Notes: a model not told the origin generated them from the letters alone. Numbered from the stretch's first letter, positions 13,750 through 62,818 are shown. The stretch: DNA of 64,000 nt from Heptranchias perlo (GCF_035084215.1 NC_090331.1:25296001-25360000), one strand, 5' to 3'. Numbers and translations: made by a program.

Positions 13750-15520
13750 TATTTGTTTCCAGAATGTGGGCGACGTTGACAAGACCACATTGATTGCCCA
13801 TCCCTAGTTGCCCAGGGAAAGTAGTGGTGAGCCTTCTGCTATAAACTGCTGCAGTTCTTGCAGTGATGGTGCTACCACAATGCTGTTATGATGTGGAGAT
13901 GCCGGTGATGGACTGGGGTTGACAATTGTAAACAATTTTACAACACCAAGTTATAGTCCAACAAATTTATTTTAAATTCCACAATTTGTTGGACTATAAC
14001 TTGGTGTTGTAAAATTGTTTACAATGCTGTTAGGTAGAGAATTCCAAGATTCTGACCCAACGATGATGAAGGAATGGTGATATATGTCCCTGTCAGGATG
14101 GTGTGTGACTGGGAGGGGAACTCAGTGATGGTGGTGCTCCCATCATACTTTTGTCCTCTGTGGTAGAGGTTGCAGTGAAGGGAGGTGCTATTGAAGTGAC
14201 CTTGATGAGATTCTGCATTGCGTCCTGTAGATCGTACAGACTATAACTACAGAGTGCTGGTGGTGGAGAGGGTGGACATTGAATCCAGTGGGAAAGGCAC
14301 TTATCAAGCAAACTGCTATATCCTGAATGGTGTCAAGCTTCTTGTGTGTTGTTGCAGCTGGACTATCCAAGCAAGTGGTGAGTATTCCATCACACTCCAG
14401 CTTTGATTCTTGATGGAGAGGCTTTAAGGGATGAGAAGGTGAGCCACTTGTTGCAGAATACGTATTCTCTGCCCTGTTATTATAGCCATGGCGCTGATAT
14501 AGCTAATCCAGTTCAGCTTCTGGTCAGTGTGACCCCCAGGACATTGATTGTGGGGGACTCAGCGATGGTGGTGCCATTGAAGGTCAAAGGGTGATGTCTG
14601 ACCTTTCCCTTGTTCGTTGTGGTCATTGCTTGGCACTTACGTGATACAAATGTTATTTGCCACTTGTCAGCCCATGATGTTATCCAGGTCCTGCTGTATG
14701 GGCTGCTTCTTAAATTGTGAATGGAGCGGAACACTGTAGAATCGTCAGAGAACAGCCTCACCCCTGATCTTGCGATGGAGGAAAGGTCAGTTGCTTTTTA
14801 ATGAGGAGTGAACTAAATTGGATGGACACTAATATCTATAATGGTGGGGACCTCAGGAAGAAACCAAGTAGGATCAACTACTCCTGTTAGTTGCCTGGTG
14901 GTCAACCACTATTCTCAACTGAAAAAATAGGCTTACAGTGCTTTCCTCTGACCCGTTGATTATGGGACTGCATAGCTTTGTCTATTCTGCTACTTTTGGT
15001 GTTTAGCAGGCAGGTGGCCCTGTGTAGTAGCTTCACTAGGTTGGTATCGCATTCTAAGATATGCCTGATGCTGGCTTCTGGAGCACCCTTCTACACTGCA
15101 CATTGAACCTGGCTTGATGGCGATCAAGGATTGAGGGCTGTGCCAGGTTATGAGGTTACAGATTGTGGTGGTTCACAATTCTGCTGCTGCTGATGGCCCA
15201 TAACGCCTCACTGATGCTCAATTTTAAGCTGCTAGATCTGTCCTTAGTCTGTCCCACTTAGCACAATGGTAATAGCACAATACATAGATAAATATGATTC
15301 TGTGAGTACAAATATATCAGGCTGTTGTTTGGCTAGTCTGTGTGGGGCAGCTCTTCCAATTTAGGCACTAGCCCTTAGATGTTAATGAGTGGACTTTTCA
15401 GGGATTGCTTTAGTCTTATCCTGACATAATGCCTGGGTCATTGCCAATAGGTCCGTCTCATTTTTTTCTTATTATTGAACTCGAAGTGATTGTTTACAAT
15501 TGGGTGGCTTGTTGGGCCAC
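13750..15520 (-). mobile_element. Old diverged family-B LINE fragment
   Basis: Homologous to 2552-3040. ORFs read KKLDTIQDIAVCLI and RLFSDDSTVF...WADKWQITF. Right boundary approximate. Confidence 0.7.
13889..14020. mobile_element. Miniature palindromic Penelope-like (pLTR-only) insertion
   Basis: Matches the ends of 27444-30085. Perfect 43-bp inverted repeat 13925-13967 / 13983-14025. TSD acaatgctgtta at 13877-13888 and 14021-14032. Confidence 0.88.
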
Positions 15521-15965
15521 TTCAGAAGACATTAAGAGTCAACTATGTAGTGTGGGGCTGAACTTACATGTAGGCCCGACCAGGTAGGGATGTTAGCGAA
15601 CAGTTCAGTTTTCACGACAATCTGGAAGCTTTAATGGCTATTTTTTTTGGTACTAGCCCATAAATTATTAGATTTATTGAATTAATTTTCACAACTTGCC
15701 ATGGTGGGATTGGAACTCATGACCTCTGAATTGCTAGTTCAGTACCAAAACAACAAGGCTACTGCATGGGGTCTGGGAGGGCCCCCCCCACCCACCCAAA
15801 AAAAAAGTAGGCAGGTGCCATATCATCTCGCTACGTATATCAGTAAAACATTAGCTCCCTCCATATTGCAAGAGTATATGTTATCACTGCCATCTTGATA
15901 TTTTTCACACAATAGGTTAAAAAAAATCCACACCCTAACAGTAGTAGGATTAGGGACACGTAGTA

Positions 15966-16172
15966 TTAGGAACATAGAAACAGGAGTAGGCCATTCAGCC
16001 TGTCGTGCCTGCTCCACCATTCAATTTGATCATGGCTAATGTATACCTGAATTCCATTTACCTGCCTTTGCTCCATATCCCTTGATACCCTTACCTAACA
16101 AAAATGTATTGATCTCAGTCTTGAAAATTTCAATTGACCCAGCATCCACAGCCTTTCGGGGGAGTGTTCCAG
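15966..16172 (-). mobile_element. CR1 3' UTR fragment
   Basis: aacatagaaacaggagtaggccattcagcc matches the other CR1 3' ends in the window. Confidence 0.75.
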
Positions 16173-16931
16173 AGTTGCGCTACCCTATTCCAACACACCA
16201 TAACGTTCTCATCATCCCAAATATGTTCTTTATGCTCCATAAAGTACTATGTAGAGCACAAATTGCCAATCTTGCCAACTCTATTTTAAAACTTAAGCAG
16301 TCCTTGTTACCATTTGAGATGTTGCTAAGAGTGAGTAGAAATGGACCATTTTGGAAAACTTAGCCCATATCTGTACCATTTAAAAGAAAATGGGAATCAC
16401 CGTACACAGATATAAACCACAGTGCTTTTCAAGGTGCAAAAATTGCTGACCATTACTAAGATTCATAACACGTGCTGGTATAGCCTACACATCAGCTCCA
16501 TTCTGGCCAGGTTAATCACTATACAATGCTGATAAAACTCTAACGGAGTAAGTTGTAACACTGTTCCAGATATAGAAGCAACTTGTACAGCGACATTGGA
16601 TACATAGCAGTTTATCAGTCTAATTGAGAGTCTGGTGAGACTTTTCCCGTTGTTGCTCTGCATGCAGGATTACCCAGGGTACTTTGCACTTACATACAGT
16701 CAGATCCATATGTGTGATCCTGATATGCAGTCTCCTCCTGTCACATTACGTAGAAGAGTCTGCTGTGTTCCACAAACCATCAGTGGGGATTCCACGGCTA
16801 AGTGGCAGACTCTGCAGCCCTGGGAAATCACTTGTAAATTAAAAATGATAAATGCTGCATACATTATATAAAGTCTGAGCAGTTTTGTGGTTTACAGGTT
16901 GTGACACTGCTGATGGGTATTGCTGATTTTA

Positions 16932-24348: not shown

Positions 24349-25656
24349 GCCTAGATTTTCAAGTATAGGTCCAGTTTACTCCCAAATCATTACAAACAGG
24401 CATTGCACTAACACAAATGGAAATGTGCTATTTGCACCCAATCTTCTGAGGTCAGCTCATTATCAAATGATGAATAGCTCCAGATGTAGATTTGAATGTG
24501 TGCAAGAAGCACACTAGGGCTGTGGGTGGAAAATTATGTGTAAGTAAAATTTAAAGGGATGGGAACAATTAAAGGGAAGTGTCACTGTTAGAAATTCGGG
24601 TCTGTTGTAAATGCTTGGGTTCTTGGGTTCAGTGGCATCAGTCGATTCCATAAGTGGGAGCTTCTTACTTTTATGGGAGTTGACTTACACTGCCCAATAT
24701 CTACTTGCATAATAGTATAAACTGGGAAGTATAATAATACAACTCCCTTGCAACTTGAACTGGTTATTCATTGCTTTTGCATATTTGCTTTTTCAAACTC
24801 TGCATTCGTGGACTGAGCAAACACTTGGTACTTGAACATGTTGTCACCTCCCAGATCTGTGCCCATTTTTCCTTGAACTTCCTGTTTGAATCACGGGTGC
24901 CCGATCCACTACCGCCTCCGCTAAAAGTTAAAATAACCTCTTGGGTGCCCTCTCTCCTAGTAGCTTGCACCTATGTTTTTAATGCAGAGTGGTCTTCAAC
25001 GTCAAATAGTTCTTCGGCGCACCTCATGCAGCAGGATGTCCGACTCTTTAACATCAAAGGGGCCAGTATTGTCCACATATGTCCGTTGTGCCATTGTGAT
25101 CAATTTCTCCAGTTTTCTGTCCCCACAGCTTCCCTTTTAATGGCTAGGTGCAGTTCTTTAAAGTAAGTGTAGTCCAGTCATCTCTTAACAATTTTGTTTC
25201 ATTTCCCTTTTTCTACAGGCTCATAGGTTCTCATGAGACTTTGTGCTAATTGTTCTATATTTTTTCTCCAGCACCATTGCTGGCCCCAGTGGATTTGGAA
25301 CAAGAAGAGGAGAACCAACAAGGAAATGCCTGGCAGGTCAGGCTGCATGAGATGTGTATGTGTCTGCAAGCACCTCCCACGGTTGCAGAGAAAGGTAAAC
25401 ATACCTCACTTTGGCAGATGAACTGTGCATGCAGGCACTTTTCTCTAATTGTTCCCATCCCTTTAACTTTCACTTATGAAGAGTTTTCCGCTCCCATCAC
25501 TAGTCTGCTCCCTGCATACGTGCAAATCTGCACCTGCTATTCTAATGAGCTGACTCTGAAAAATTACATGTAAACTGTACACTTCAATTTCAGTCTGTCT
25601 AAAGGCTGTTTCTAACCATTTGCTCTAAATTGCACCTATAGAGATAAAATCTAAGC
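24349..25656 (-). mobile_element. Old non-autonomous Harbinger-derived element
   Basis: Imperfect ~50-bp TIRs (24349-24401 vs 25604-25656). Internal Myb-like remnant on the minus strand (LLHEVRQR...WREGTQEV, clearest in the duplicate copy). Confidence 0.55.
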
Positions 25657-25681
25657 AGCTATATTTATTCCTCATTCCTAC
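24897..25681 (+). repeat. Local duplication, copy 1 (copy 2 = 26911-27445 + 30086-30366)
   Basis: Collinear, high-identity match along the whole length, from cccgatc to cctcattcctac. Confidence 0.93.
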
Positions 25682-26803: not shown

Positions 26804-27528
26804 TGAATGCCTTGGATAACATTGATGTTGTCCCAGATACAATCAATGGGTTAGTGCCAATTGTGAAAGTGGGTATACTGTACTTGGTGCATGGATTCAT
26901 TTTATAATAAGCGCCCGATCTGCTACCGCCTATTTACTGCCACTGCCAAAAGTTAAAATGACCTCTTGGGTGCCCTCTCTCCAAGCCTCTTGCACCTGTG
27001 CTTTTAAGACAGAGTGGTCTTCAACCTCAAATAGAGATAAGCTCCTTTGGCGCACCTCATGCAGCAGGATGTCCGACCCTTTAACATCAAAGGGGCCAGT
27101 ATTGTCCACATATGTCCGTTGTGCCATTGCGATCAATTTCTCCAGTTTTTTGTCCCCACAGCTTCCCTTTTAATGGCTAGGTGCAGTTCTTTAAAATAAC
27201 TGTAGTCCAGTCATCTCTTAACAATTTTGTTTCATTTCTTTTTTTCTGCAGGCTCATTGGTTCTCATGAGACTTTGTGCTAATTGTTCTATATTTTTTCT
27301 CCAGCACCATTGCTGGCCCCAGTGGAATTGGAACAAGAACAGGAGAACCAACAGGGATATGCCTGGCAGGTCAGGCTGCATGAGATGTGCATGTGTCTGC
27401 AAGCACCTCCACAGCTGCAGAGAAAGGTAAACATACCTCACTTTGTGGAGATGCCGGTGATGGACTGGGGTTGACAATTGTAAACAATTTTACAACACCA
27501 AGTTATAGTCCAGCAATTTTATTTTAAA

Positions 27529-27567
27529 TTCACAAGCTTTCGGAGATTTTCTCCTTCCTCAGGCAAA
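27529..27567 (-). ncRNA. Minimal hammerhead-ribozyme-like motif
   Basis: Reverse complement of 29996-30034. Confidence 0.65.
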
Positions 27568-27815
27568 TGTTTCAAGATCTCCTTGAAGCCTACGCATTTA
27601 TACATATTGAACAATACATGGTGTTTACAGACTGCCCCTGCAACTGCCCGTTGCCAAGGCAATCACCGTGTTCAGACAGAGAGGTGTTACCTGCAGAACC
27701 CCCGAATACACATTCTACAAAAAAACAAACAGGGAAAAAAAACAGAGAAAAAAAAAACACAGAGAGAGGCAGAAACATCCGGAAGGCAGAGAGAGCCAGC
27801 AAATGACCCATTATA

Positions 27816-28727
27816 TTAAAAACAGATAACATTTGTTCGCTGGTGGGGTAACGTGTAGCGTGACATGAACCCAAGATCCCGGTTGAGGCCGTCCTCATGG
27901 GTGCGGAACTTGGCTATCAATTTCTGCTCGACGATTTTGCGTTGTCGTGTGTCTCGAAGGCCGCCTTGGAGTACGCTTACCCGAAGGTCGGTGGATGAAT
28001 GTCCATGACTGCTGAAGTGTTCCCCGACTGGGAGGGAACCCTCCTGTTTGGCGATTGTTGCGCGGTGTCCGTTCATCCGTTGTCGCAGCGTCTGCATGGT
28101 CTCGCCAATGTACCATGCTCTGGGGCATCCTTTCCTGCAACGTATGAGGTAGACAACGTTGGCTGAGTCACAGGAGTATGAACCATGCACCTGGTGGGTG
28201 GTGTCATCTCGTGTGATGGTGGTATCTGTGTCGATGATCTGGCATGTCTTGCAGAGGTTACCGTGGCAGGGTTGTGTGGCGTCGTGGACGCTGTTCTCTT
28301 GAAAGCTAGGTAGTTTGCTGCGAACGATGGTCTGTTTGAGGTTGGGTGGCTGTTTAAAGGCGAGTAGTGGAGGTGTGGGGATGGCCATAGCGAGGTGTTT
28401 GTCCTCATTGATGACATGTTGAAGGCTGCGGAGAACATGGCGTAGTTTCTCCGCTCCGGGGAAGTACTGGACGACAAAGGGTACTCTGTTGGTTGCGTCC
28501 CGTGTTAGTCTCCTGAGGAGGTCTATGCGATTTTTTGCTGTGGCCCGTCGGAATTGTCGATCGATGAGTCGAGCGTCATATCCCGTTCTTACTAGGGCGT
28601 CTTTCAGCGTCTGTAGGTGTCCATCGCGTTCCTCCTCGTCTGAGCAGACCCTGTGTATTCGCAGGGCCTGTCCATAGGGGATGGCCTCTTTGACGTGGTT
28701 AGGGTGGAAGCTGGAAAAGTGGAGCAT
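27816..28727 (-). CDS. 5'-truncated PLE ORF: RT thumb, Cys linker and GIY-YIG endonuclease
   Basis: Uninterrupted 303 aa. HPNHVKEAIPYGQALRIHRVCS thumb, PCHGNLCKTC linker, VVYLIRC...YIGET...RMNGH GIY-YIG. Confidence 0.85.
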   Translation of the reverse strand: MLHFSSFHPNHVKEAIPYGQALRIHRVCSDEEERDGHLQTLKDALVRTGYDARLIDRQFRRATAKNRIDLLRRLTRDATNRVPFVVQYFPGAEKLRHVLRSLQHVINEDKHLAMAIPTPPLLAFKQPPNLKQTIVRSKLPSFQENSVHDATQPCHGNLCKTCQIIDTDTTITRDDTTHQVHGSYSCDSANVVYLIRCRKGCPRAWYIGETMQTLRQRMNGHRATIAKQEGSLPVGEHFSSHGHSSTDLRVSVLQGGLRDTRQRKIVEQKLIAKFRTHEDGLNRDLGFMSRYTLPHQRTNVICF

Positions 28728-28738
28728 CGTGAGGTTGA

Positions 28739-29747
28739 CTCCTCAGAATCAGTTTCTTTCTTGGACACACGAATCTCCATCAAAGACGGGCACCTCAGCA
28801 CCTCACTCTACCGCAAGCCCACGGACAACCTCACGATGCTCCACTTTTCCAGCTTCCACCCTAACCACGTCAAAGAGGCCATCCCCTATGGACAGGCCCT
28901 GCGAATACACAGGGTCTGCTCAGACGAGGAGGAACGCGATGGACACCTACAGACGCTGAAAGACGCCCTAGTAAGAACGGGATATGACGCTCGACTCATC
29001 GATCGACAATTCCGACGGGCCACAGCAAAAAATCGCATAGACCTCCTCAGGAGACTAACACGGGACGCAACCAACAGAGTACCCTTTGTCGTCCAGTACT
29101 TCCCCGGAGCGGAGAAACTACGCCATGTTCTCCGCAGCCTTCAACATGTCATCAATGAGGACAAACACCTCGCTATGGCCATCCCCACACCTCCACTACT
29201 CGCCTTTAAACAGCCACCCAACCTCAAACAGACCATCGTTCGCAGCAAACTACCTAGCTTTCAAGAGAACAGCGTCCACGACGCCACACAACCCTGCCAC
29301 GGTAACCTCTGCAAGACATGCCAGATCATCGACACAGATACCACCATCACACGAGATGACACCACCCACCAGGTGCATGGTTCATACTCCTGTGACTCAG
29401 CCAACGTTGTCTACCTCATACGTTGCAGGAAAGGATGCCCCAGAGCATGGTACATTGGCGAGACCATGCAGACGCTGCGACAACGGATGAACGGACACCG
29501 CGCAACAATCGCCAAACAGGAGGGTTCCCTCCCAGTCGGGGAACACTTCAGCAGTCATGGACATTCATCCACCGACCTTCGGGTAAGCGTACTCCAAGGC
29601 GGCCTTCGAGACACACGACAACGCAAAATCGTCGAGCAGAAATTGATAGCCAAGTTCCGCACCCATGAGGACGGCCTCAACCGGGATCTTGGGTTCATGT
29701 CACGCTACACGTTACCCCACCAGCGAACAAATGTTATCTGTTTTTAA
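28739..29747 (+). CDS. 5'-truncated PLE ORF: RT C-terminus and GIY-YIG endonuclease
   Basis: Starts at about SSESVSFLDTRI...LYRKPTD. The rest is identical in protein to the minus-strand arm. First ATG at 28836. Confidence 0.85.
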
Positions 29748-29995
29748 TATAATGGGTCATTTGCTGGCTCTCTCTGCCTTCCGGATGTTTCTGCCTCTCT
29801 CTGTGTTTTTTTTTTCTCTGTTTTTTTTCCCTGTTTGTTTTTTTGTTGAATGTGTATTCGGGGGTTCTGCAGGTAACACCTCTCTGTCTGAACACGGTGA
29901 TTGCCTTGGCAACGGGCAGTTGCAGGGGCAGTCTGTAAACACCATGTATTGTTCAATATGTATAAATGCGTAGGCTTCAAGGAGATCTTGAAACA

Positions 29996-30034
29996 TTTGC
30001 CTGAGGAAGGAGAAAATCTCCGAAAGCTTGTGAA
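29996..30034 (+). ncRNA. Minimal hammerhead-ribozyme-like motif
   Basis: UUUGC-CUGAGGA-A-GGAGA(AAA)UCUCC-GAAA-GC-UU-GUGAA. Contains the CUGANGA and GAAA core, stem II, a wobble stem I and a palindromic AGCU in place of stem III. Confidence 0.65.
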
Positions 30035-32583
30035 TTTAAAATAAAATTGCTGGACTATAACTTGGTGTTGTAAAATTGTTTACAAATACCTCACTTTGGC
30101 AGATGAACTGTGCATGCAGGCACTTTTCTCTAATTGTTCCCATCCCTTTATCTTTCACTATTAACATTTTTTCCATTCCCACCACTAGTTTGCTCCCTGT
30201 ATATGTGCAAATCTACACCTGCTATTCTAATGAGCTGACTGTGGAAAATTACATGTAAACTGTACACTTCAATTTCAGCCTGTCTAAAGGCTGTTTCTAA
30301 CCATTTGCTCTAAACTGAACCTATAGAGATGAAATCTAAGCTGCTATATTTAATCCTCATTCCTACTTTAGCCTACAAAAAGTAAAAAGCGAGTATACTC
30401 AGTATATCATTGTATATTTTCCACTACATGATACAGTGATCTCACAATATTGGGCAATGCCATTTATTCATTGCTCACTTAACACAATGGCTAAAGCCCT
30501 GCTAATTTGCTGTGCTGATGGTGCGATGGTATCACCAACATATCAAAGCTGTTTTACAAAGTGACTGCTATGTTCCAGAACAACTATTTCCTGGGTGCAT
30601 GTATCTTTACTAAACCTAGAGATGGTATGAGGACAAGAGGGGTGATTCTGTGATGCGATATCCCAGGTGAAGAGCATCACAGAATGGACAGAATGCACTC
30701 GCCGGGAGTGCATCTTGGGCAAGTCTCAGGCAAGTGGATGGAAAATCATAGCTGCACAAACACGATTTCCTGAGATGTGCATTGGTCTTCACTGGGATCA
30801 CCAGATTGCGGAGTCACACCTAATACATGCTCATCAATTTTACCGTAATATTTCTTTTTGCAACCTTTTAATTTTTGGAACCAGAGTGTGTACTGACTCT
30901 TGTACAGAGCATGCTTTAGGATTTTTGGCTCATGGTGGTGCTAACATCATGTCTGCTGCTATTCATCTCAAAAATGGCACTTTCTATGCAATACATTTCA
31001 AGAATATTTTGATGGATTTCTCTGAAACTTGTATAACAGGTTCTAGTCACAAACCTTTTCAGTGTTTGTCTCTTCCCAGGCAGCATCTTAAATAAGGATG
31101 GGGTCTGAATTGTCCCATCTATTTTTGAACAACGATGAAACTGGTCCTCTTTTCATTTTAATTCATGAAGTCTTTGTGTCTAATCCCATAGTTTGACATA
31201 TAATATATAACAAAACCACTTCAGTATGACTGTTGTATTGAATATTTTACCTAAAATCAAAACTTACAACATTTAAATTGCACCAAAGCAGACATGCCAC
31301 TTAAAATTGATATCATGCATGGAGATTACTATCATTTTTGGTTGGCTACAATTCTGACCGACAGTTAAAGAATAGATACTTGAAGTCATTTTCCAAAATA
31401 TAATGATCCAGCATATTTGTACTTTCAACAGTAATAATGTTGGTCTTTGTTGTTCCATCAAGATCACTAGATTTGTTTTGAACTTCTGGCAGCTTTAATT
31501 TTACGGCAGTCTATTCCTTAATATCTTTGCTTGGGTCACAGGCAATTAAAGTACAGTCTGGGTATTCATAGATTAGTCTTGTGAAATGCTTACATTAAAA
31601 AGTACTGTGTTATTGTAGTTCATATTTCTGAGTGACCTTAATGAACTCACTAATGACTTACTCCTTCCTGCCACCTTTTTGATAGTGTGCATGTTTTGAT
31701 ACATTTTAAGGACAAGGATTTTTGTTGGCAATCAATCAATAAAAAGCTGGCAACTTTAAAAATTAAGGTAAAACAGGGCAAAGAATTCAAAGCAATAGAT
31801 TAAAAAAATTATAATATAGTTGATAATGCCAGTTCACAGCGCTGACAGTCTCTAAATCCCGCTTTGTGATGATAGATGCTTCCTCTCTGCAGGAGGATTG
31901 TAAAGGGATGTGCATTCAGATTAGTTCAGAAGGTGGGTTTGGACCCCTTGAAATAAGAATGTTCCATATTTAAAGTCAAGAAGAAAATGGTGTGCAAGGA
32001 GTTATCGGGGAGGAAGACAGCTCCCATTCTGAGCACCTCAGAGAAATGGAGTGCTTCAGATAGGCTGGAGACCCTCACCATCAGATTGTCAAGGAAGTAG
32101 GCAGTTCAAACTAATAGCCTTCTCAGACGCCCAGGGAAATGCATGCTTTAAAAGCACAGCCACTAGACCACTAGAGAAATCAGACAGATCAGATGCAAAT
32201 GATAAGAGAAAAACAAGGGGTGGTGACCCTGCCTGTCAATCATTCCCTTCTGACACCAAAGCCTGAATTAGGGAAATGCTCAAACATTACCTACATTACG
32301 GAAATGTTCGCTACATTATGACCAACATGATAGTACAGATATAGAGCAGGCAAGAAACAGGCAACTGTCTGATCTTGCCATTTTTGTTAGATCTGAATCA
32401 TGCAAACTTTAGACAGATTTAGTTCAATTTGGAATTTCAATTTGGTTCAGAACTCATCTCCTAAGTTCCACTTTTCAAATCTTGGTAACACACAATAGGC
32501 CTAATTCTGCACTTGCAATTGGATGGCAAGCTTCCAGGGAGTGTGCGTTGGTGAATTGGGGATAGCCCTATCTCTGGCCCAAG

Positions 32584-33636: not shown

Positions 33637-34112
33637 GAACATACGAACATACAAATTAAGAGCAGGAGTAGGCCATTCGGCCCCTCGAGTCTGCTGTGCC
33701 ATTTGATAAGATCATGGCTGATCTGATTGTGACCTCAACCCCACTTTCCCGTCTACCTACTATAACCTTTGACTCCCTTGTTAATCAGGAATCTATCTAA
33801 CTCAGCCTTAAAAATATTCAATGACCCTGCCTCCACCGCTCTCTGGGGAAGGGAGTTCCACAGACTCACGACCTTCTGAGAGAATAAATTTCTCCTCATC
33901 TCCATCTTAAATGGGAGTCCCCTTATTTTTAAACTGTGTCCCCTAGTTCTAGTCTCTCCCACAAGGGGAAACATCCTCTCAGCATCTACCCCTTCAAATC
34001 CCCTCAGGATCTTATATGTTTCAATAAGATCACCTCTTATTCTTCTAAACTCCAATGTATACAGGCCCAACTTATCCAACCTTTCCTCATAAGATAACCC
34101 CCTCATCCTAGG
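33637..34112 (-). mobile_element. CR1 3' fragment
   Basis: MRGLSYEERLDKLGLYTLEFRRIRGDLIETYKI, followed by a CR1 3'UTR. Confidence 0.92.
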
Positions 34113-37100
34113 AGTTTTATTTCAAGTTAAAATTCAGAGCAAATAATGGGGAAGCCTGCTAGTTTGATGATTTCTCTTCCTGGGTGTTAAAGGAGATCCA
34201 GTTTTTTGGCCTGTTGGGAAGGGATTCCTTAAAATTGCACTCCTCATTTCTTTTTGCTACCATTCAAGTGCAAGCTATGGGGAATTCTATCCACTGGATT
34301 TAATGGAAGGGGACTAAGAGAACAAAAAAAGAATGCCAAGGTCTCAGGTGGTATCAGAGACAAATTGGTCATAGCTCCCAATATGCCACCAATAGGCCCA
34401 CAAACAACTACCTGGCAATGATCGAGGAGAAACTCCTCTGCATGCTCTGGTTCACCAATAAGGCAGTTACAGAATTGTGCCGTCTATTACAAGGAGAATT
34501 GCAGCCACGTTCCGCAAGGTGATCAGAGCCCTCAACTCTTATGCATCTAGTTCCTTCCAGGCCAGCACAAAGGATAGCTGCAGAATCAGTAAATTTGCTG
34601 TCCACAGGTATATTATGCAGCAGGGCCAACACTTTAAATTCTTTTCCCACTGAACAGCAAAATAAGCTTGACTGAGATGCCAAATTAGTCATATTAGCAG
34701 ACAAATACCTAACTCATTCATACGATATTCCTCTGTCACCTACTTTACCTTAGGCATTACCAAATTTATTTTAAATGGCTTTAACAGTCCTCTAAAATAC
34801 TGGACAGAGGAAAGTCAGACAAGTGTATTAAGGGTTTGCCTGCTGATACTGTATCTCCATCAATAGGTTCTAGGCTTCAGACTTTAGATTACAACATTTA
34901 CAAACATAAGCAATTTTCCACTTTTTTCCCTCTTTGCAAACTGTCCTTGAGAAGCACGCTGAGGTCTGGACAAGAACATGTGGTAAAATCACAGATTTGT
35001 TTCAAATGTGCTGGTATTTCACAAGATTACTAATTTAACTACTCATTTTGGTCACTGATTGCTTTCTGTCAAGTATTTTGTCTGAAGGGCATTATCATGC
35101 TAATTTTAAATCTTCCCTTTACAGGAACAAACTCTTTGAAAGGGGATTATCACCTCCGCCACTATAGGTGCTGGTTTTGCCTGATGTACACTTGTGCAGA
35201 TCAATACTGTTGTAGCGCTTTGACATTTATATTTAAAAACTGCATTTCCCCCCCTTACTCAATTAACCTTTTGAGGACTAGGCCTTCCCTAGGTGATACT
35301 CATCTTAAAACGTCTTTTTGCATAGGATTCCTCTGAATGCTTCTCTGTTCAGCCCAGTATCTCAGTGTGCTGTAATTCTCAACCTATGTAACAGCAGATA
35401 GAATTTATTATGTTAAAACAAGTAAGGAATAGTCAAAAGGAAATTCTCTGTTTTTGTGTTACCCTTTGCAGAAAGTTCTAGATGATAAATAACCACTTTT
35501 GTAGGTTAAGGGGTTCCAGAACAAGTGGAATATTTAGGGTCAGAAGTATGTCTTTCATTTTGAGCATAATATATTTTACTTTACAATGCACTTTATGTCA
35601 ATTTTAGATCAGTTTCAAGAAATCACAATCAACCAAGCAGCACTCTTTGACTGATTCAGAGACTAGATCATTAATTAGGTGGAATAGAATGGAAATAAAT
35701 TCTGAAACAAAATGATTTGGATATTATAGTGTATAAAATTCACAGCACTTTGACGTTTTTCTGGCAGAAACCTATTAAAGTTCCAGCAGAATGAATTCTG
35801 CAACTTAAAAATTAGGATTGCAGCTTTACAGATTCTTGTAGGTATGCTATGAGAAGAATATTCCTTCTTTGCAAAATCCTACAGAAAGTCAGTACTGTTC
35901 AGTGTTAACAAGATAGCTGTAGATGAAAATTCCACCCTGCTGTCATTGATGATACCGAGGTTCAGGAACATATAGTGGATGACTTGTTTGCATGACTGAA
36001 AGTAACCACTCTGATCTAATTTACTTGCAGTAACAAAGTGCATATGGGTGACTGGCAACAAAATGAATGCTTGTTGAACACCATAACAGAATGGTAACTG
36101 GGTGGTGCTGTTACTGAGAGTATTAGGCACATCTCTAACAGTTCATTGTATAAAACATGGTGTGCTCATTTCACTGATAAAATCAGAAGTGACATTGAGC
36201 CAACGGACTGGTTATTCAGCACAGTACAATGGTTTTCCCACAACAGTGAAACAGGAAATTGCTATCTACCTGTGATTCACTGCGTGGTGAATTTCCTAAT
36301 CTCAAAGGAGGCGTTTTACCCTAGGGTGGGAGGGGAAGATGGCGGTGATGAGTAAGCTCAGGTTGTTCTTGTGCATCCAGTGGCCAGTTATAGCAAAGTA
36401 TGGCAATGGCCTGAGAGAACGTTACTAGTCTACATTATCAAATGGGTAATTGAATGTGATTAGGAGGTGGTTAATGAAAAGATGAATTGGGGTGAAAAAA
36501 CGTTAAATAAACAAAACATCTTGCTTTATTTTTCACTGAACCACCCTTGAACATGGGACCTCTTGGATCTTATGGTCTGTTTCACATTCTGAAGCCTCAA
36601 GTTCCGTTTCAGGGAACTTGAGTTTTAGTGATCATTAAGGTTGGTCAAGAATCTTATATTGAGGTAGAGAAATTGGGATTGGTTTACAGTGATTTTTTTT
36701 TTACCTATCTATAGGCAAAACATGCAATTCAAAGAAAGAGCTAAATCATGTTCTGTTTGACTCGAGTCTCCTGGGAGTATTGTTGCCCTGGTAAAATGAT
36801 TGGAGTGGTGTTTGTCAAGTTTATGCAGCGATGGAGTTGATGCTGTTACCATGATTATGCCTGTATTAAGAATAGATTAATAAATAGTTTCTGTGAAAGC
36901 TAGTTCATCCTGCAGCATCCACTGCAGGTGGAACTTTCCTTATACAGTGGGAAATCAATTTTTTTGGAGCAGGCCATTATAGGGAATGAGGCAGCCAAGA
37001 AACTCCCTGGTAAGGTGATGATTGGAGCAAGTGATTTAGCATTGTGTGATGTGATGTCCAGTAGAAAAACTCCGGTGAACTTCCGTACTTACTGTATTTA

Positions 37101-42111: not shown

Positions 42112-43199
42112 ATCAGTGTTATCAGTTATCCAGTACTTCCAGTACTTCCCCGGAGCGGAGAAGTTATCCAGTACTTCCCCGGAGCGGAGAAACTACGCCA
42201 TGTTCTCCGCAGCCTTCAACATGTCATCAATGAGGACAAACACCTCGCTATGGCCATCCCCACACCTCCACTACTCGCCTTTAAACAGCCACCCAACCTC
42301 AAACAGACCATCGTTCGCAGCAAACTACCTAGCTTTCAAGAGAACAGCGTCCACGACGCCACACAACCCTGCCACGGTAACCTCTGCAAGACATGCCAGA
42401 TCATCGACACAGATACCACCATCACACGAGATGACACCACCCACCAGGTGCATGGTTCATACTCCTGTGACTCAGCCAACGTTGTCTACCTCATACGTTG
42501 CAGGAAAGGATGCCCCAGAGCATGGTACATTGGCAAGACCATGCAGACGCTGCGACAACGGATGAACGGACACCGCGCAACAATCGCCAAACAGGAGGGT
42601 TCCCTCCCAGTCGGGGAACACTTCAGCAGTCATGGACATTCATCCACCGACCTTCGGGTAAGCGTACTCCAAGGCGGCCTTCGAGACACACGACAACGCA
42701 AAATTGTCGAGCAGAAATTGATAGCCAAGTTCCGCACCCATGAGGACGGCCTCAACCGGGATCTTGGGTTCATGTCACGCTACACGTTACCCCACCAGCG
42801 AACAAATGTTATCTGTTTTTAATATAATGGGTCATTTGCTGGCTCTCTCTGCCTTCCGGATGTTTCTGCCTCTCTCTGTGTTTTTTTTTCTCTGTTTTTT
42901 TTCCCTGTTTGTTTTTTTGTTGAATGTGTATTCGGAGGTTCTGCAGGTAACACCTCTCTGTCTGAACACGGTGATTGCCTTGGCAACGGGCAGTTGCAGG
43001 GGCAGTCTGTAAACACCATGTATTATTGTTCAATATGTATAAATGCGTAGGCTTCAAGGAGATCTTGAAACATTTGCCTGAGGAAGGAGAAAATCTCCGA
43101 AAGCTTGTGAATTTAAAATAAAATTGCTGGACTATAACTTGGTGTTGTAAAATTGTTTACAATTGTCAACCCCAGTCCATCACCGGCATCTCCACATCA
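42112..43199 (+). mobile_element. Penelope-like element subfamily A, single 5'-truncated arm with stuttered 5' junction
   Basis: Near-identical to 29092-30085 plus the tail ...catctccacatca. GIY-YIG frame open to 42822. atcagt is present at both junctions. Confidence 0.95.
43073..43111 (+). ncRNA. Minimal hammerhead-ribozyme-like motif
   Basis: Identical to 29996-30034. Confidence 0.65.
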
Positions 43200-46597: not shown

Positions 46598-48039
46598 CTG
46601 GAAATAAAAAAGACAAAGGGAAAAAAAAACAAAATGATTAAACTACAGATTGTATCCAGTAGTCTGTTTTAGTCAGCAACATGAATAAACTATATTCCAG
46701 TATTTGGGTGAAGCCTGTGCCCATAAAGGTGAAAGATTTCAATGCTGGGGGATAGACCACTTTCAATCTTTCTGAAACTTGTATCAGCCTAGTTCAAGTA
46801 CAGAATGATCAAAATCCAGAATAAGTCTCTATACACTCTCAACAATGCTCTTCAAGCTCAATCTAGGAAGAGCTCCCCTTCAGTTTACTGAAGGAAGAAA
46901 GCGATTTTAAGCTGAATTTTATTTTAAAGAAAGTTGGTACCTTACTCAGTTGTTGCCACCAGGTTTGAACTAATAAAGGCTATGTACTTACAATGCATGT
47001 TAGAGATATGGGCCATAAATTTTAGCACAGCGGCAAAAAAATCTGTGGGTGGGTGGATTTGCACGTGGGGAACCCGGAAGCAAAGTGAGCACGTTTAAAT
47101 CTGCGATCGTATCTCGATTGCAGTCAATTACCTTTGCTTCCAGGTTTCGGGTATCCAAGCTGCCCAGCGGGCCGACTGTGCATCCGAATGATTCGATTTA
47201 AAGCGCACTATTTAAAGGGCCAGTCCAAGAATGGATTTTGAAGGAGAAAAGAGAAATGGAGTCCAGGAGAGTAAAGACAGCGCCAAGATTTACTGATGTC
47301 TCCCTAGATGTACAACTAGCTGTAGAGAGAGTCAGGAAGGAGGTAATTTATCCCAGTGATGGGAGGAAGAAACCCAGTTCTGTCACCAAGAAGGCGTGGC
47401 TGGAGGTGGCAGAAGAGGTGAGCAGCAGGAGCATAGTGCCCAGGTCTTGCCTGCAGTACAGGAAGCGGTTTAATGACCTAACCAGGTTAGGAAAAGTGAG
47501 TACACTTGCTGATTCACCCACATCCTGTGAAATGCAACGCCCCCCTCTCACTCTGTCTTGGCAAGCCTACTCCATCACATCACTCCTTACACCCACTTAA
47601 GTTTCAGCATCAACTAACCTTCTCTTTCTGTGCACTTCCTCACCTCCCCATTTGTGCACCCACCACTCCCACTCACTCCAATCCTGATGCAATGTGATGC
47701 TTTTGTCTGATAGTCACCCTCTGATGTATCGGTTTCATTGTCAGCCTCACCCAAAACAATGCATCCATCGGGTGAATACGTCACCTTCAGTCACTTACAG
47801 GTCTGTTCTTTCTCTCCTTGTAGGAGAAAAGAGTGCAAAAAGCAAGGAAGAGGAGCAGAACTGGAGGTGAACCACCACAAATAGTCCAGCTGACAGATGC
47901 AGAGGAGGCGGCCATGGAGATCAGTCGTACCGTTGCATGCCTATCCGTTGGAGATGGAGAGACTGGTAACCCGCAGATGGCTGGTGACAGAACTTTAACA
48001 TCTTTCACACACATGATGATTTGATTTTATAGTATTTCA

Positions 48040-49110
48040 GGTATTTAAAAAGGAAAAGAGTAAATAAAGTGAGTGTTGGTCCTCTAGACAATGAGTCTGG
48101 GGAATTAATAATGGAGAACAAGGAAAAAGCGGACAGGAAATGGCGGATGAATTGAACAGATATTTTGTGTCCGTCTTCACTGTAGAGGATGCAAATAACA
48201 TGCCAGAAATAATTGTGAATCAAGAGGTGAAAGGGAGGGAGGAACTTAAAACATTTACAATAGTCTGAAAAAAAGGTTTCTGAAAAAATTATTAGAACTA
48301 AAACCTGACAAGTCCCCAGGTCCTGACGGACTTCATCCCAGGGTCTTAAAATAAGTGGCTGCAGAGATAGTAGGTGCATTGGTATTAATTTTCCAAAATT
48401 CTCTAGATTCCGGAAGGGTCCCATCAGATTGGAAAATAGCGAATGTAACTCCTCTATTCAAGAAAGGAGGGAAACAGAAAGCAAGAAACTACAAGCCAGT
48501 TAGCTTAACATCTGTCATAGGGAAAATGCTAGAATCTATTACTAAGGAGGTTATAGCAGGGCACTTAGAAAATCTCAATGCAATCAGGCTTTGTGAAAGG
48601 GAAATCGTGTTTGACTATTTTATTAGAGTTCTTTGAGAAAGTAACAAGCAACATGGATAAAGGGGATCCTGTGGGTGTGGTGTACTTGGATTTCCAGAAG
48701 GCTTTTGACAAGGTGCCACATCAAAGGCTACTACACAAAATAAGAGCTCATGGTGTAGGGGGCAACATATTAGCATGGATAAAGGATTGGTTAGCTAACA
48801 GGAAACAGAGAGTAGGCATAAATGGGTCATTTTCAAGTTGGCAAGATGTAATGAGTGGAGTGCTACAGGGAACAGTGCTGGGGCCTCAACTATTTACAAT
48901 CTATATCAATGACTTGGATGAAGAGACTGAATGTATGGTTGCTAAAATAGATTCCTGATTAACAAAAAAGTCAAAGGTTATAGTAGGTAGACGGGAAAGT
49001 AGGGTTGAGGTCACCATCAGATCAGCCATGATCTTATCAAATGGCAGAGCAGGCTCGAGGGGCCGAATGGCCTGCTCCTGCTCTTAATTCGTATGTTCCT
49101 ATGTTCGTAT
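48040..49110 (+). mobile_element. CR1 fragment (RT region joined directly to a 3' end)
   Basis: WKIANVTPLFKKG, YLDFQKAFDKVPH and [18 protein letters not shown], then an abrupt jump at ~48949 to a CR1 3'UTR with tatgttc tail. Confidence 0.92.
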
Positions 49111-49111
49111 G

Positions 49112-49944
49112 AATTGTTCTCCAACTAAATATTGGGAAGACCGCCACAACCTCCGTTCCCTTGCCACTGATTCCATCTCTCTCCTTGGCCACTGTCTGAG
49201 GCTGAACCAGACTGTTCGCAACTTTGGCATCCTATTTGACCTTGAGCTGAGCTTCCGACCACATATCTACTCCATAACCAAGACCGCCTACTTCCACCTC
49301 TGTAACATCACCCGTCTCCTCCCCTGCCTCAGCTCATCTACTGCTGAAACCCTCATCTATGCCTTTGTTACCTCTAGACTCGACTATTCCAATGCTCTCT
49401 TGGCTGGCCTCCCATCTTCCACCCTCTATAAACTTGAGCTCATCAAAAACCCTGCTGCCCGTATCCTAACTCACACCATGTCCCATTCTTCCAACACCCC
49501 TGTGCTCGCTGACTTATATTGGCACCCGGTCTGGGAATGCCTCGATTTTAAGATTCTCATCCTTGTTTTTAAATCTCTCCATGGTCTCGCCTTCCCTAGC
49601 TCTGTAACCTCCTACAGCCCTGCAACCCTCGTAGGTCTCTGTGCTCACCCAGTTCTTGCCTCTTGTGCATCGCTGACTTTAATCATTCCACCATTGGCGG
49701 CTGTGCCTTCAGCTGCCTCGGCCCTAAGCTCAGGAATTTCCACCCTTAACCTCTCTACCGCTGTCTCCTTTAAGACACTCCTTCAAACCTACCTCTTTGA
49801 TCAAGCTTTTAGTCACCTGTCTCCTTATCTCCTTATGTGGCTCAGTGTCAAATTTTGTTTGATAACGCTCCTGTGAAGCGCCTTGGGACGTTTTACTACG
49901 TTAAAGACGATATATAAATGCAAGTTGTTGTTGTTGTTGTTGTT
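49112..49944 (+). mobile_element. L2 LINE 3' fragment
   Basis: KTAYFHLCNI...AETLIYAFVTSRLDYSNALLAGLP is the L2 ORF2 motif. Tail tatataaatgcaa(gtt)n. Confidence 0.9.
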
Positions 49945-56499: not shown

Positions 56500-58435
56500 T
56501 TACATAGAATGTGCAGCACAGAAACAGGCCATTCGGTCCAACAGGTTCATGCCGGTGTTTATGTTCCACACGAACCTCCTCCCACCCTTCTTCATCTAAC
56601 CCATCAACATATCGTTCTATTCCTTTCTCCCTCGTGCTTATCTAGCTTCCCTATAAATGCATCTATAGTAGTCACCTCAATTACTCCGTGTACTAGCGAG
56701 TTCCACATTCTAACCACTCTCTGGGTAAAGAAGTTTCTTCTGAATTCCCTATTGGATTTATTAGTGACTATCTTATATTTAGGGCCCCTAGTTCTGGTCT
56801 CCCCCACAAGTGGAAACATCTTCTCTACATCTACCCTATCAAACCCTTTCATAATCTTAAAGACCTCTATCAGATCACCCCTCAGTCTTCTCTTTTCTAG
56901 AGAAAAGAGCCCCAGCGTGTTCAATCTTTCCTGATGTGTATAACCTTTCAATTCTGGTATCATCCTAGTAAATCTTTTTTGCACCTTCTCCATGCCTCTT
57001 TATCCTTTTTATAATATGGAGACCAGAACTGTGCACAGTACTCCAAGTGTGGTCTAACCAAGGTTGTATACAAGTTTAACATAACTTCCCTGCTTTTCAA
57101 TTCTATCCCTCTAGAAATGAACCCCAGTGCTTTGTTTGCTTTTTTAATGGCCTTATTAACCTGCATTGCAACTTTCAGTGATTTGTGTCTCTGTACCCCC
57201 AAATCCCTCTGCTCCTCTACCCCATTTAGACCCTTATTTTCCAAGGAGTATGTGGCCTCCCTATTCTTCCTACCAAAATGTACCATCTCACACCTTTTTT
57301 TTGTTCGTTCATGGGATGTGGGTGTCGCTGGTGAGGCCAGCATTTATTGCCCATCCCTAATTGCCCTTGAGAAGGTGGTGGTGAGCCGCCTTCTAGAACC
57401 GCTGCAGTCTGTGTGGTGAAGATTCTCCCACAGTGCTGTTAGGCAGGGAGTTCCAGGATTTTGACCCAGCGACGATGAAGGAACGGCGATATATTTCCAA
57501 CACATATCTATATTGAAATTAATTTGCCAATTACATGCCCATTCTGCAAGTCTATTAATGTCTTCCTGTATTTTGTCGCAGTCATCCTCAGTATTAACTA
57601 TACCCCCGCCACCAAATTTGGTGGTGTCCACAAATTATGAAATTGCACTTCCAATTCCCGAGTCCAAATCGTTGATGTAAATTGTGAACAACAGTGGTCC
57701 AAGCACCAATCCTTGTGGAACACCACTTCCTACCTTTTGCCAGTCTAAGTAACTACCTTTAACCCCTACTCTCTGATTTCTGTTTTGTAGCCAGCTTGCT
57801 ATCCATTCTGCAACTTGTCCCCTGACTCCACACGCTCTGACCTTAGTCATGAGTCTACTTTGCGGTACCTTATCGGAGGCCTTTTGAAAATCCAAATATA
57901 TTACATCTACTGCATTACCCTTGTCTATCCTTTCTGTTACTTCTTAAAAGATTTCAACAAGGCTGCTCAAGCATGACCTTCGCTTTTGAAATTCTTGCTG
58001 ACTATTCTTTATTATATTTTCAGTTTCCAGATGTTTTTCTATTACATCTTTGAGTAAGGATTCAATTATCTTTCCTGCCACCGACGTTAATCCAATTGGT
58101 CTATTGGACTTGTTCTATCTCCCTTTTAAATATAGGAATCACATTAGCTGTCCGCCAGTCCTCTGGCACTATTCCCTTTTCTAATGAATTTTTATACATA
58201 TGTAATCGCGCCTCTGCTATCTCTTCCCTAATTTCTTTTAATATGCACAGATGCAATCTACCCGGACCAGGGGTTTAAGCCTCTCTAAGTTTGATTCGTT
58301 TATCAATTATCTCCCCCTTTTTATCTTAAATGTCTTTATATCTTTTTTGATCTCTTCTTCTAATGTTATGTCCACCATGTTCGTCTCCCTGGTAAATACT
58401 AAGGCAAAGTAATTATTTAATATTTCTGCCATTTT
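56500..58435 (-). mobile_element. CR1 LINE ORF2 fragment with nested family-B 3' end (57295-57500)
   Basis: LGLFSLEKRRLRGDLIEVFKI, LVRPHLEYCAQFWSP, SGVPQGLVLGPLLFTIYINDLD. Confidence 0.92.
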
Positions 58436-59720: not shown

Positions 59721-60049
59721 CTATCAAGCAGGATGTGAGGTTTAGGAGACCGAACACAAGATCAAAGAAAGTGGTTTTGGAAGAGAATTTGAGAGGCTTA
59801 ACAGCATGGTGCCGGAAAACAAGCTCCCATTGTTAACTTTACAAAGTGGGAACATTTGGTTACCTGGAAGGTAAGTTTCTGCAGAGGTTGCCCCGCTCAT
59901 TCACAGTAACACTGGCAGAAAAGCTGCGTAAACCCCAGAGAAAGTATGTAAACACCATTTACGCCATTTTTCCAGGGTTCAGCAGCTCTTGGATTATTTG
60001 TAAGGAATCTTACAACACCAGGTTATAGTCCAACAGTTTTATTTGAAAA

Positions 60050-60086
60050 TCACAAGCTTTCGGAGGCTTTCTCCTTCATCAGGTGA
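60050..60086 (-). ncRNA. Minimal hammerhead-ribozyme-like motif
   Basis: Reverse complement of 61677-61713. Confidence 0.7.
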
Positions 60087-61676
60087 GTGTGGGATTCCTT
60101 GAAGGTTACCGCATATATAGTCAGAGAACAATGCCTGATGATTACAGATAATCTTTCCAACTGCCCGTTGTCAAGGCAATCAGACAGAGAGACAGTACAT
60201 ACAGGACTACTGAATATACAAACGGTCCAAACCCAAAGACAGAGAGAGAGCGAGAGAAACATCCGAAAGGAAGAGAAAGAGAGAGAATGACCAGTTGTAT
60301 TAAAAACAGATAACTCTTTTTTCGCTGGTGGGGTTACGTGTAGCGTGACATGAACCCAAGATCCTGGTTGAGGCCGTCCTCATGGGTGCGGAACTTGGCT
60401 ATCAATTTCTGCTCGACGATTTTGCGTTGTCGTGTGTCTCGAAGGCCGCCTTGGAGAACGCTTACCCAAAGATCGGTGGCTGAATGTCCTTGACTGCTGA
60501 AGTGTTCCCCGACTGGGAGGGAACCCTCCTGTCTGGCGATTGTTGCGCGGTGTCCGTTCATCCGTTGTCGCAGTGTCTGCATGGTCTCTCCAATGTACCA
60601 CGCTCCGGGGCATCCTTTCCTGCAACGTATGAGGTAGACAACGTTGGCTGAGTCACAGGAGTATGAACCATGTACCTGGTGGGTGGTGTCCTCTCATGTG
60701 ATGGTGGTATCTGTGTCGATGATCTGGCATGTCTTGCAGAGGTTGCTGTGGCAGGGTTGTGTGGTGTCGTGGACGCTGTTCTCCTGAAAGCTGGGTAATT
60801 TGCTGCGAACGATGGTCTGTTTGAGGTTGGGTGGCTGTTTGAAGGTGAGTAGTGGAGGCGTGGGGATGGCCTTAGGGAGGTGTTCGTCGTCATCGATGAC
60901 ATGTTGAAGGCTGCGGAGAACATGGCGTAGTTTCTCCGCTCCGGGGAAGTACTGGATGACGAAGGGTACTCTGTTGGTTGCGTCCCGTGTTTGTCTTCTG
61001 AGGAGGTCTATGAGATTTTTTGCTGTGGCCCGTCGGAACTGTCGATTGACGAGTTGGGCGTCATATCCCGTTCTTACACCAGCCACCAGGTACATGGTTC
61101 ATACTCCTGTGACTTGGCCAACATTGTCTACCTCATACGTTGCAGGAAAGGATGCCCCGGAGCATGGTACATTGGCAAGACCATGCAGACACTGCGACAA
61201 CGGATGAACGGACACCGCGCAACAATCGCCAGACAGGAGGGTTCCCTCCCAGTCGGGGAACACTTCAGCAGTCAAGGACATTCAGCCACCGATCTTCGGG
61301 TAAGCGTTCTCCAAGGCGGCCTTCGAGACACACGACAACGCAAAATCGTCGAGCAGAAATTGAAAGCCAAGTTCCGCACCCATGAGGACGGCCTCAACCA
61401 GGATCTTGGGTTCATGTCACGCTACACGTAACCCCACCAGCGAAAAAAGAGTTATCTGTTTTTAATACAACTGGTCATTCTCTCTCTCTTCCTTTCGGAT
61501 GTTTCTCTCGCTCTCTCTCTCTGTCTTTGGGTTCGGACCATTTGTATATTCAGTAGTCCTGTATGTACTGTCTCTCTGTCTGATTGCCTTGACAACGGGC
61601 AGTTGGAAAGATTATCTGTAATCACCAGGCATTGTTCTCTGATTATATATGCGGTAACCTTCAAGGAATCCCACAC

Positions 61677-61713
61677 TCACCTGATGAAGGAGAAAGCCTC
61701 CGAAAGCTTGTGA
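61677..61713 (+). ncRNA. Minimal hammerhead-ribozyme-like motif
   Basis: UCAC-CUGAUGA-A-GGAG(AAAGC)CUCC-GAAA-GC-UU-GUGA. Stem I is UCAC/GUGA. Confidence 0.7.
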
Positions 61714-62818
61714 TTTTCAAATAAAACTGTTGGACTATAACCTGGTGTTGTAAGATTCCTTACATTTGTCCACTCCAGTCCATCACCGACATCTCCACAT
61801 CATGGATTATTTGTGCTATTGAAAGTCAAGAGCTGTACCAATAAGAAGCAATTACAGCCGTGCCTGTTAGAAACTGTATTTAAGAAGCAATAAGCAGTTA
61901 GATACAGGCAATATTTCTTTCTCATTTAACTAAAGGATTAATTTTAAAGATCTAAAAATATCTAATTTTGGAATGAAAATGAAAATCGAATTTTAACTGC
62001 TGATGGGATATGGTGGAAGAATTACACCTCCGTGTTTTGATAAGGGAACAAAACCTCAGCTTCAGAACATCTTTTGATTAGGGCACTTCTTTTATATTAT
62101 AGGATGTTTACAAAACCCCAGTTATAGAAAGACCTGAAGTAATTTTTTTCATGGGGACTAAACAGTCCCTAAATCTAAACCGTCAGTCCTACACATATGT
62201 ACATGTGGAACAGCATCTTACCAAAATTATGTCATTAAATACCAAGTTCCATTGATGAGTTGATTGGGACGAAACAAAAGCAAAACTTTCAAACTGAAAA
62301 TCAAGCTATTATTCAATTGCTTGGTCCACCCACATTTGAATGGGGGACCTGGTGTTGTAGTAGCAGAAGACTAGGTGACTGTAAATCAATTGAAATTTGT
62401 TTACTTAAAAAGATCAGTTGCTGCTGTTGGTGGTAAAATCTCTATGTTCTGTTGCAATCAAAGCCAAACAAAGCAACATCACTTCTTTAATTTTAGCTGG
62501 TGCTAAAGTAAGTTAATGGACATAAATCAGGCACCATGGGCCTGCGAATTCCTGATGAGCAAGTGCCACTCCTTGCTGGAAGTGCCCAATTGTGGAATCG
62601 TCCCTTTATTTTATTTTTATTGGGCTGCTTCATTATTATGTTTAATAATCTGACAAAAATGTTGTAGCCAAAATCAAACTGCTTATTCAACTTCTAAAGC
62701 CTGCAATTATCTCTGCATGGTGGAAATATTAGGTTGACCAGAAAGTGTAGGTGTGGTATAGATATGACTGAAATGTCTTTCCCTATCTCACAATAACTTT
62801 GTCAGCACTGAGATCATA

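Follow-up and report, generated by a model that had tools for sequence, protein, structure and literature searches.

Palindromic insertions of a Penelope-like retrotransposon in the shark Heptranchias perlo and a possible origin of their inverted arms

The typical structure of Penelope comprises inverted pseudo-long terminal repeats (pLTRs), one of which bears a 31-bp tail, and target site duplications (TSDs) of 8–10 bp (PMC3846280). A tail of 30–40 bp is often found at only one end of Penelope-like elements (PLEs; PMC8557442), and inverted pLTRs and 3′ extensions are both listed in a curation guide (PMC8969392). In vitro, a full-length Poseidon protein, predicted to form a dimer, nicks and extends both target strands, with two start sites that bound the tail and an uncleaved RNA as template (PMC11167929). 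The origin of the inverted repeats is still called open in PMC8557442 and PMC11167929. We compared four copies (A, B, C and D) of one PLE within a single stretch of Heptranchias perlo DNA (the window; 64,000 nt, GCF_035084215.1 NC_090331.1:25296001-25360000, with coordinates counted from its first base). Three of the four copies are palindromic, and their junctions suggest that each palindrome was probably primed from both strands of one target.

Self-BLAST of the window revealed three inverted-repeat blocks with a common end, at 13.9, 27.4–30.1 and 60.0–61.8 kb, and a fourth block with a single arm at 42.1–43.2 kb (copy D); neither tblastn nor short-word blastn found further copies of the element in the window. 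The palindromes of A (13889–14020), B (27446–30085) and C (60002–61802) are each bounded by one exact direct repeat, and these terminal repeats together with the self-BLAST result confirm the original prediction of three palindromic insertions with one architecture. The parts of the four copies, including the open reading frame (ORF) end where present, are as follows.

13877..13888, unstranded: left TSD copy of insertion A, 12 bp (exact repeat of 14021–14032; present once in two paralogous host-repeat sites)
13889..13984, minus strand: tailed arm of insertion A, 96 nt (repeat and arm comparison)
13983..14020, plus strand: tail-less arm of insertion A, 38 nt (plus 5 nt common to the TSD), with a 2-nt centre overlap (0/38 differences from the tailed arm)
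14021..14032, unstranded: right TSD copy of insertion A, its first 5 nt equal to continuing element sequence (exact repeat)
25401..25413 (about), unstranded: empty paralogue of the B target site in a local host duplication (B flanks aligned to 25330–25500)
27433..27445, unstranded: left TSD copy of insertion B, 13 bp, its last 2 nt common to the tail (exact repeat)
27446..28737, minus strand: tailed arm of insertion B, 1292 nt, with 5′-truncated ORF end, pLTR and tail (1/1260 differences from the other arm)
28738..30085, plus strand: tail-less arm of insertion B, 1348 nt, with a blunt centre and no TSD microhomology (upstream codon checked against protein P0001)
30086..30098, unstranded: right TSD copy of insertion B, 13 bp (exact repeat)
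42121..42166, plus strand: 5′ junction of copy D, a possible 7-bp TSD copy (42121–42127) followed by locally duplicated junction and element sequence (junction comparison)
42167..43199, plus strand: single tailed arm of copy D with no inverted partner, start at 42129/42167 (self-BLAST, arm comparison)
59990..60001, unstranded: left TSD copy of insertion C, 12 bp, its last 3 nt common to the element (exact repeat)
60002..61077, minus strand: tail-less arm of insertion C, 1076 nt, second subfamily (arm comparison)
61076..61802, plus strand: tailed arm of insertion C, 727 nt, with a 2-nt centre overlap, its last base being the first of the inferred start codon of the ORF (13/684 differences from the other arm)
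61803..61814, unstranded: right TSD copy of insertion C, 12 bp (exact repeat)

The TSDs of 12, 13 and 12 bp are exact at both termini, as had been claimed, and the chance of a 12-mer match in a 20 × 20 position search is ~3e-5. Two diverged copies of a host repeat, near 2.7 and 57.4 kb, each have the A site once, and the 13-mer of B occurs once in the other copy of a host duplication (~92% identical); no paralogue of the C flank was present among the self-BLAST matches in the window. The exact TSDs and the empty paralogous sites of A and B indicate that these are real insertions and not echoes of the assembly. An assembly or library artefact made of fold-back chimeric reads would account for the almost identical arms of B (1/1260 differences), but it is scarcely credible given those TSDs and empty sites, the unequal arm ends, the unique central spacers and the 13/684 independent differences between the arms of C. 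None of the four targets is a microsatellite, which makes the TSDs readable.

Copy D differs from B by 0.3–0.4% and carries the full tail, with no inverted arm and a duplication of at most 7 bp. Since D has one arm, the palindrome occurs in 3/4 window copies and is not obligatory; the original prediction, which held the pattern to be common to the insertions, was right for the three palindromes but had omitted this copy. The 5′ junction of D (42121–42166) repeats a few target bases and the first 10–25 element bases before the body of the element, in a manner like repeated template jumps or templated end-joining.

The arm ends fall at two places in the element, numbered here from the first base of an alignment of element ends (A1). 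As originally described, every palindrome (3/3) has one tailed arm and a partner arm that ends at TTACA(A), with a tail of 32–43 nt depending on the assignment of shared bases. The short ends can be placed at positions 34–39 (A), 38 (B) and 34–37 (C), with no single base fitting all three (within 1 nt), and the long ends at 75–76 (A), 70–72 (B), 75–77 (C) and 71–75 (D), that of B being at least 3 nt short of those of A and C. The two priming sites that had been called fixed are thus two narrow windows rather than two fixed bases. The maximal TSDs are 12, 13 and 12 bp, and removal of all shared bases leaves 6, 11 and 7. The TSD lengths are tight only if shared bases are counted as target, which would favour a fixed stagger with pairing between primer and template.

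Comparison of the arms within each insertion revealed that their contents are unequal and their source is common. The tail-less arm extends further 5′ than the tailed arm by 88 nt in B and by 388 nt in C, so that in both insertions each arm has sequence absent from the other (tail versus extra 5′ sequence), which excludes plain fold-back copying; in A, the tail-less arm lies wholly within the tailed arm. The arms of B differ at 1/1260 positions and have three substitutions and two indels in common against D, those of C differ at 13/684 positions and have 88/683 subfamily-diagnostic sites in common, and those of A differ at 0/38 positions and have two variants in common against B/D. Both arms of an insertion derive from one source, and this identity fits a single RNA as well as two RNAs that come from the same locus. 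Gene conversion that keeps the arms alike was considered and rejected; the arms of C have diverged independently, with several of the changes at CpG-type sites.

The presence of at least two subfamilies, predicted earlier, was borne out by C, which differs from B/D by 11–15%, with 88/683 common columns diagnostic. A further reading is that of two separate insertions over time, in which the later element entered, in opposite orientation, at the 5′ end of the earlier one. Single-arm copies such as D exist, and the nuclease of the Anolis Poseidon protein PAc can cut its own pLTR region in vitro (PMC11167929). We nevertheless regard it as very improbable: a single TSD surrounds each palindrome with none at the centre, and the arms of a pair always belong to one subfamily and have private variants in common, even though the window holds two subfamilies.

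We then examined the outer junctions, where bases common to the TSD and the element number 5 (A), 0 (B) and 3 (C) nt at the short arms and 1 (A), 2 (B) and 2 (C) nt at the tailed arms, the shared bases of the tailed arms of A and C being counted with a start codon inferred from a single gene model, P0015. Summed over the six outer junctions, microhomology comes to 13, where 4.1 would be expected (P = 0.003 by the analytic test, 0.004 empirically with random window targets and 0.012 at an AT-richer match rate); for the short arms alone, P is 0.007–0.018. The ACA that had been reported at the short-arm junctions is part of the shared sequence in A (5 nt) and C (3 nt). In B, the target ACA straddles the nick, the junction exceeds by two A's what pairing with ACA would yield and the microhomology is 0 nt, and priming by ACA was therefore rejected for this insertion. 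The original prediction that only one of the two sides uses microhomology did not hold, with 0 nt at the short arm of B and 1–2 nt at the tailed arms. Pairing of a few bases between primer and template, if it holds, would amend the statement of non-homology in PMC11167929. The main start region of the anole element (+111 to +118) is ACA-rich by hand count, and both start windows of the shark element (43159–43161 and 43194–43199) contain ACA; ACA-containing start regions are possibly a feature common to PLE clades.

The same junctions could be read as the trace of repair, with one target-primed cDNA and a second arm added afterwards, either by host repair or by a jump of the reverse transcriptase (RT) back to RNA or cDNA, the second target end annealing at a few matching bases near the element end. 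The 5-nt (A) and 3-nt (C) matches at the short ends would suit this, as would the repair-like templated duplications at the 5′ junction of D. Repair annealing is not tied to one site, however, and the short ends lie within ~1–4 nt of one position in 3/3 insertions and in two subfamilies, including the matchless B, which makes this reading improbable.

We consider two-primer target-primed reverse transcription followed by head-to-head joining to be the best model, and one that is probably correct. As judged from the TSDs, the GIY-YIG nuclease of the element would nick both strands ~12–13 nt apart, creating two 3′ ends. Reverse transcription would then be primed by each 3′ end, as in vitro for a relative, inside an uncleaved transcript of tandem type that continues beyond the pLTR and enters the start of the next ORF. 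One primer would begin where a small hairpin has its 3′ foot (TTACA), and the other ~35 nt further downstream, on the ORF start codon or immediately before it; the six junctions suggest that 0–5 nt of pairing between primer and template at either site may help priming and would not be required. The independent 5′ ends point to two cDNAs that stopped early and independently, their ends being joined head-to-head with an overlap of 0–2 nt. Were one primer alone extended, the product would be one tailed arm whose 5′ junction is end-joined, as in copy D. Within this model, we infer that both extensions took place on one target and that the joining step followed.

Several points weigh against the two-primer model. 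The short arm of B has no microhomology, the sum over the tailed arms alone is not significant (P 0.08–0.15) and comes partly from the P0015-inferred bases, and the test was run on junctions that the original prediction had already picked (n = 6). In PMC11167929, initiation is described at a site non-homologous to the cut DNA and with no strand preference, for a Poseidon protein and not one of the Neptune type. The tail asymmetry (3/3) has P = 0.125 if the arms chose their site independently at 50:50, and three palindromes cannot prove an asymmetry rule from this window. Insertion A, taken alone, is compatible with a simple hairpin formed by fold-back. Self-priming has been proposed for the inverted junctions of PLEs (PMC3846280), and the tail has been attributed to resolution of an intermediate by the endonuclease (EN; PMC8557442). 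Of the scheme predicted originally, the staggered cut, priming from both nicks and head-to-head joining therefore stand as the best fit to the data, partly supported; priming of one side by microhomology is not supported in the form predicted, and the asymmetry would need more than these three cases to count as a rule.

In a fold-back alternative, a self-primed cDNA hairpin has two tailed arms and the GIY-YIG nuclease trims one of them at TTACA during integration. It would account for the near-identical arms and an obligatory one-sided tail as well as the hairpin-like appearance of A with its ~15-nt loop, and the D. virilis nuclease requires the tail for recognition, as cited in PMC11167929. 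The centre overlaps are 2 (A), 0 (B) and 2 (C) nt, which is the chance level (P 0.18–0.27) and thus offers little for fold-back priming, B being without any annealing base. Moreover, the first-made, longer arm of B and C would need to lose its tail, and the short end falls at a site where the RT of a relative starts in vitro. For this alternative to survive, the arm made first would have to be capable of losing its tail and fold-back would have to proceed without pairing, and we regard it as unlikely.

Returning to the two-primer model, the four copies do not discriminate between one RNA, on which a trailing RT displaces the leading cDNA, and two RNAs held by a protein dimer. A stricter version, which we put forward tentatively, is obligatory double priming on one folded RNA. 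The staggered 12–13-nt overhangs would each pair by a few bases with one of two ACA-containing windows ~35 nt apart on the terminal stem-loop; the internal primer would lead (it reaches further in 2/3 insertions) and the distal primer would follow by strand displacement, which would make the asymmetry obligatory, with A made from hammerhead-cleaved RNA. If true, this version would provide a single mechanism for two long-unexplained hallmarks of PLEs and amend the in vitro result of no homology.

The identity of the element was assigned from its coding sequence. The arms encode the last 335 residues of the ORF, with 93% identity to the Heptranchias perlo protein P0001. This protein is the nearest longer relative and has an RVT_1 match upstream (E = 5e-9), that is, RT before EN in one ORF; the window copies are 5′-truncated. 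A GIY-YIG nuclease lies at the ORF's C-terminus, with PF01541 matches at E = 5e-4 and 2e-4 (20.7 and 22.1 bits, just missing the curated cut-off of 22.6) and no PF01541 match to the whole 334-aa piece. Motif search of the B protein and P0001 found the CCHH motif, with two Cys within the GIY-YIG core and two His downstream, and a CX4CxxC linker between RT and EN at aa 186–194 in the frame of B and at position 505 in P0001.

28740..29747, plus strand: C-terminal 335 aa of the PLE ORF, including the end of the RT region (translation, motif search, relatives)
29295–29321, plus strand: CX4CxxC linker (motif search)
29409–29459, plus strand: GIY-YIG core with two internal Cys (motif search)

The CCHH motif and a CX2-5CxxC linker are defined for canonical PLEs in PMC8557442. 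By these motif definitions, we assign the element to the canonical EN+ PLEs of Neptune/Nematis type, the presence of the CX4CxxC linker placing it there and away from Penelope/Poseidon, which are recognised by absence of the linker. Neptune PLEs occur in fishes (PMC4209133), and for a vertebrate host Neptune appears likelier than Nematis. Subfamily 1 (B, D; 29712–29747) has lost the stop codon that subfamily 2 (C; 61429–61431) uses and gains 11 C-terminal residues. Shark gene models P0006, P0008, P0009, P0010 and P0015, with names that include XRCC5, septin 5a, PPP1R12A-like and NOXP20-like, hold pieces of the element as coding sequence, which reflects either exonisation or contamination of the annotation. 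When the gene models that read through the element end were used as queries against 1.84 billion representatives, 4 matches were returned (41–46% identity or none stated, query residues 9–26), which were judged unrelated; the read-through part of P0009 gave 0 matches among 1 candidate.

The region downstream of the ORF contains a TATA-like word, a hammerhead-like motif and AATAAA. In translation, the final bases of the tail give the eight residues found immediately before the first Met of the ORF in P0015, so that the tail, as read from this one gene model, appears to end on or abut the ORF start codon. This would be expected of a pLTR that, in a tandem element, acts as 3′ region and 5′ region alike; no direct tandem copy is present in the window.

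29997..30033, plus strand: hammerhead-like motif of the minimal type I within the pLTR (inspection of core words and helices)
43074–43110 and 61677–61713, together with mirror copies: further copies of the hammerhead-like motif (inspection of core words and helices)
43125..43188, plus strand: terminal RNA stem-loop of the element (fold, named pairs)

The core words of the hammerhead-like motif, an extra base after position 9, a G-C closing pair and a palindromic 15.2–16.2 all fit the description in PMC4209133, and its pairs are kept (8/8) in two distinct sequences representing both subfamilies. No Rfam hammerhead family matched the motif, the whole window contained no Rfam family at gathering scores, and low-threshold Rfam scans of two pLTRs gave weak unrelated matches only. 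The inner (5′) end of the tailed arm of A (13980–13984) lies 0–2 nt from the predicted cleavage site, with one extra base; in this single case, A may be a run-off copy of ribozyme-cleaved RNA. Since B, C and D span the predicted cleavage site, they would need an uncleaved RNA.

In the predicted terminal stem-loop, the short-arm site is the 3′ foot of an inner hairpin (43146–43161, 6 bp) and the tail is the 3′ side of the outer stem. The fold has z = −2.74 for D and −1.31 for C and is significant for subfamily 1 only. The named pairs are kept (12/12) in three distinct sequences, with double changes at two of the pairs, but neither the covariation across these three sequences nor the shuffle control (132/500) is significant; RNAalifold favoured another inner helix, which is broken in C.

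At the target sites, the nick is immediately followed by G in 5/6 cases and by a purine in 6/6 when maximal TSDs are used (nicks A 13876/14033, B 27432/30099 and C 59989/61815). By hand arithmetic, P is about 0.01 before correction for the positions scanned, and we take this only as a lead for nuclease preference. The A target shows a 5-bp inverted symmetry just outside the TSD (13872–13876, 14033–14037), which is probably due to chance and is lacking in two paralogous host repeats. The host duplication around B (~0.8 kb, ~92% identical) comprises 24364–25681 and 26935–30366, with an older inverted relative at 24364–24581.

Elsewhere in the window, a hairpin at 39591–39653 was considered as an extra copy and rejected, having no match to the element; it is a short imperfect palindrome unrelated to PLEs and possibly a small hairpin element. 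Many decayed reading frames, at 6114–6557, 8347–8841, 11463–12650, 33753–34121, 48005–49876 and 56604–57343, resemble what we take to be RT pieces of CR1/L2-type long interspersed nuclear elements.

The architecture described here is a known hallmark of PLEs that will not surprise a PLE specialist, and RT start at two sites has already been published. In the literature covered, which included 10.64898/2026.07.22.740005 and PMC9977147, neither a model that explicitly derives PLE inversions from double priming nor a study of PLE junctions in sharks was seen. The additions made here are modest: arms whose contents exclude one another, short pairing of the primers and a 12–13-nt stagger, and in addition a tail that appears to abut the start codon. 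The first three are hints at the level of junctions, which make the open question testable without settling it. The 1/1260 difference between the arms of B indicates a young shark family and, with four copies per 64 kb and clean TSDs in non-repetitive targets, its genome should offer junctions in numbers sufficient to separate double priming from fold-back by simple counting.

In L1 twin priming, both target strands prime cDNA and the products are joined head-to-head within one TSD, with non-overlapping segments and one start at the poly(A). Unlike these, the shark arms overlap by 38–1260 nt, have no poly(A) and have a fixed second start site. The canonical EN+ PLEs of the Neptune/Nematis group (Craig et al. 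2021, PMC8557442) have the same C-terminal GIY-YIG domain with CCHH, CX2-5CxxC linker, 5′ truncation, inverted truncated copy and one-sided 30–40-bp tail. The shark copies differ from the description in that paper in their non-microsatellite targets and in having no direct tandem within the window, and the paper ascribes the tail to resolution by the nuclease. Pen2a, Pen2 and Pen3a of Adineta vaga (Arkhipova et al. 2013, PMC3846280) likewise have inverted pLTRs around an insert, one 31-bp tail and an empty allele that confirms a TSD, head-to-head being the most frequent arrangement. These elements belong to the Penelope/Poseidon clade, however, with TSDs of 8–10 bp and central palindromes that were read as self-priming, whereas the shark insertions have TSDs of 12–13 bp, centre overlaps of 0–2 nt and, in B and C, long unique spacers. 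For target-primed reverse transcription by the Anolis Poseidon protein PAc (Frangieh et al. 2024, PMC11167929), the paper describes a start site without homology to the cut DNA and without a difference between strands, and leaves the origin of inverted arms unexplained. In that system, as proposed for the shark element, both strands are nicked and extended, two internal starts bound the tail in an AC-rich stem-loop, the template is uncleaved and a hammerhead lies upstream, the shark element having its hammerhead-like motif there; PAc starts 111–118 nt inside the ORF, whereas the distal site of the shark element appears to lie at the ORF start codon.

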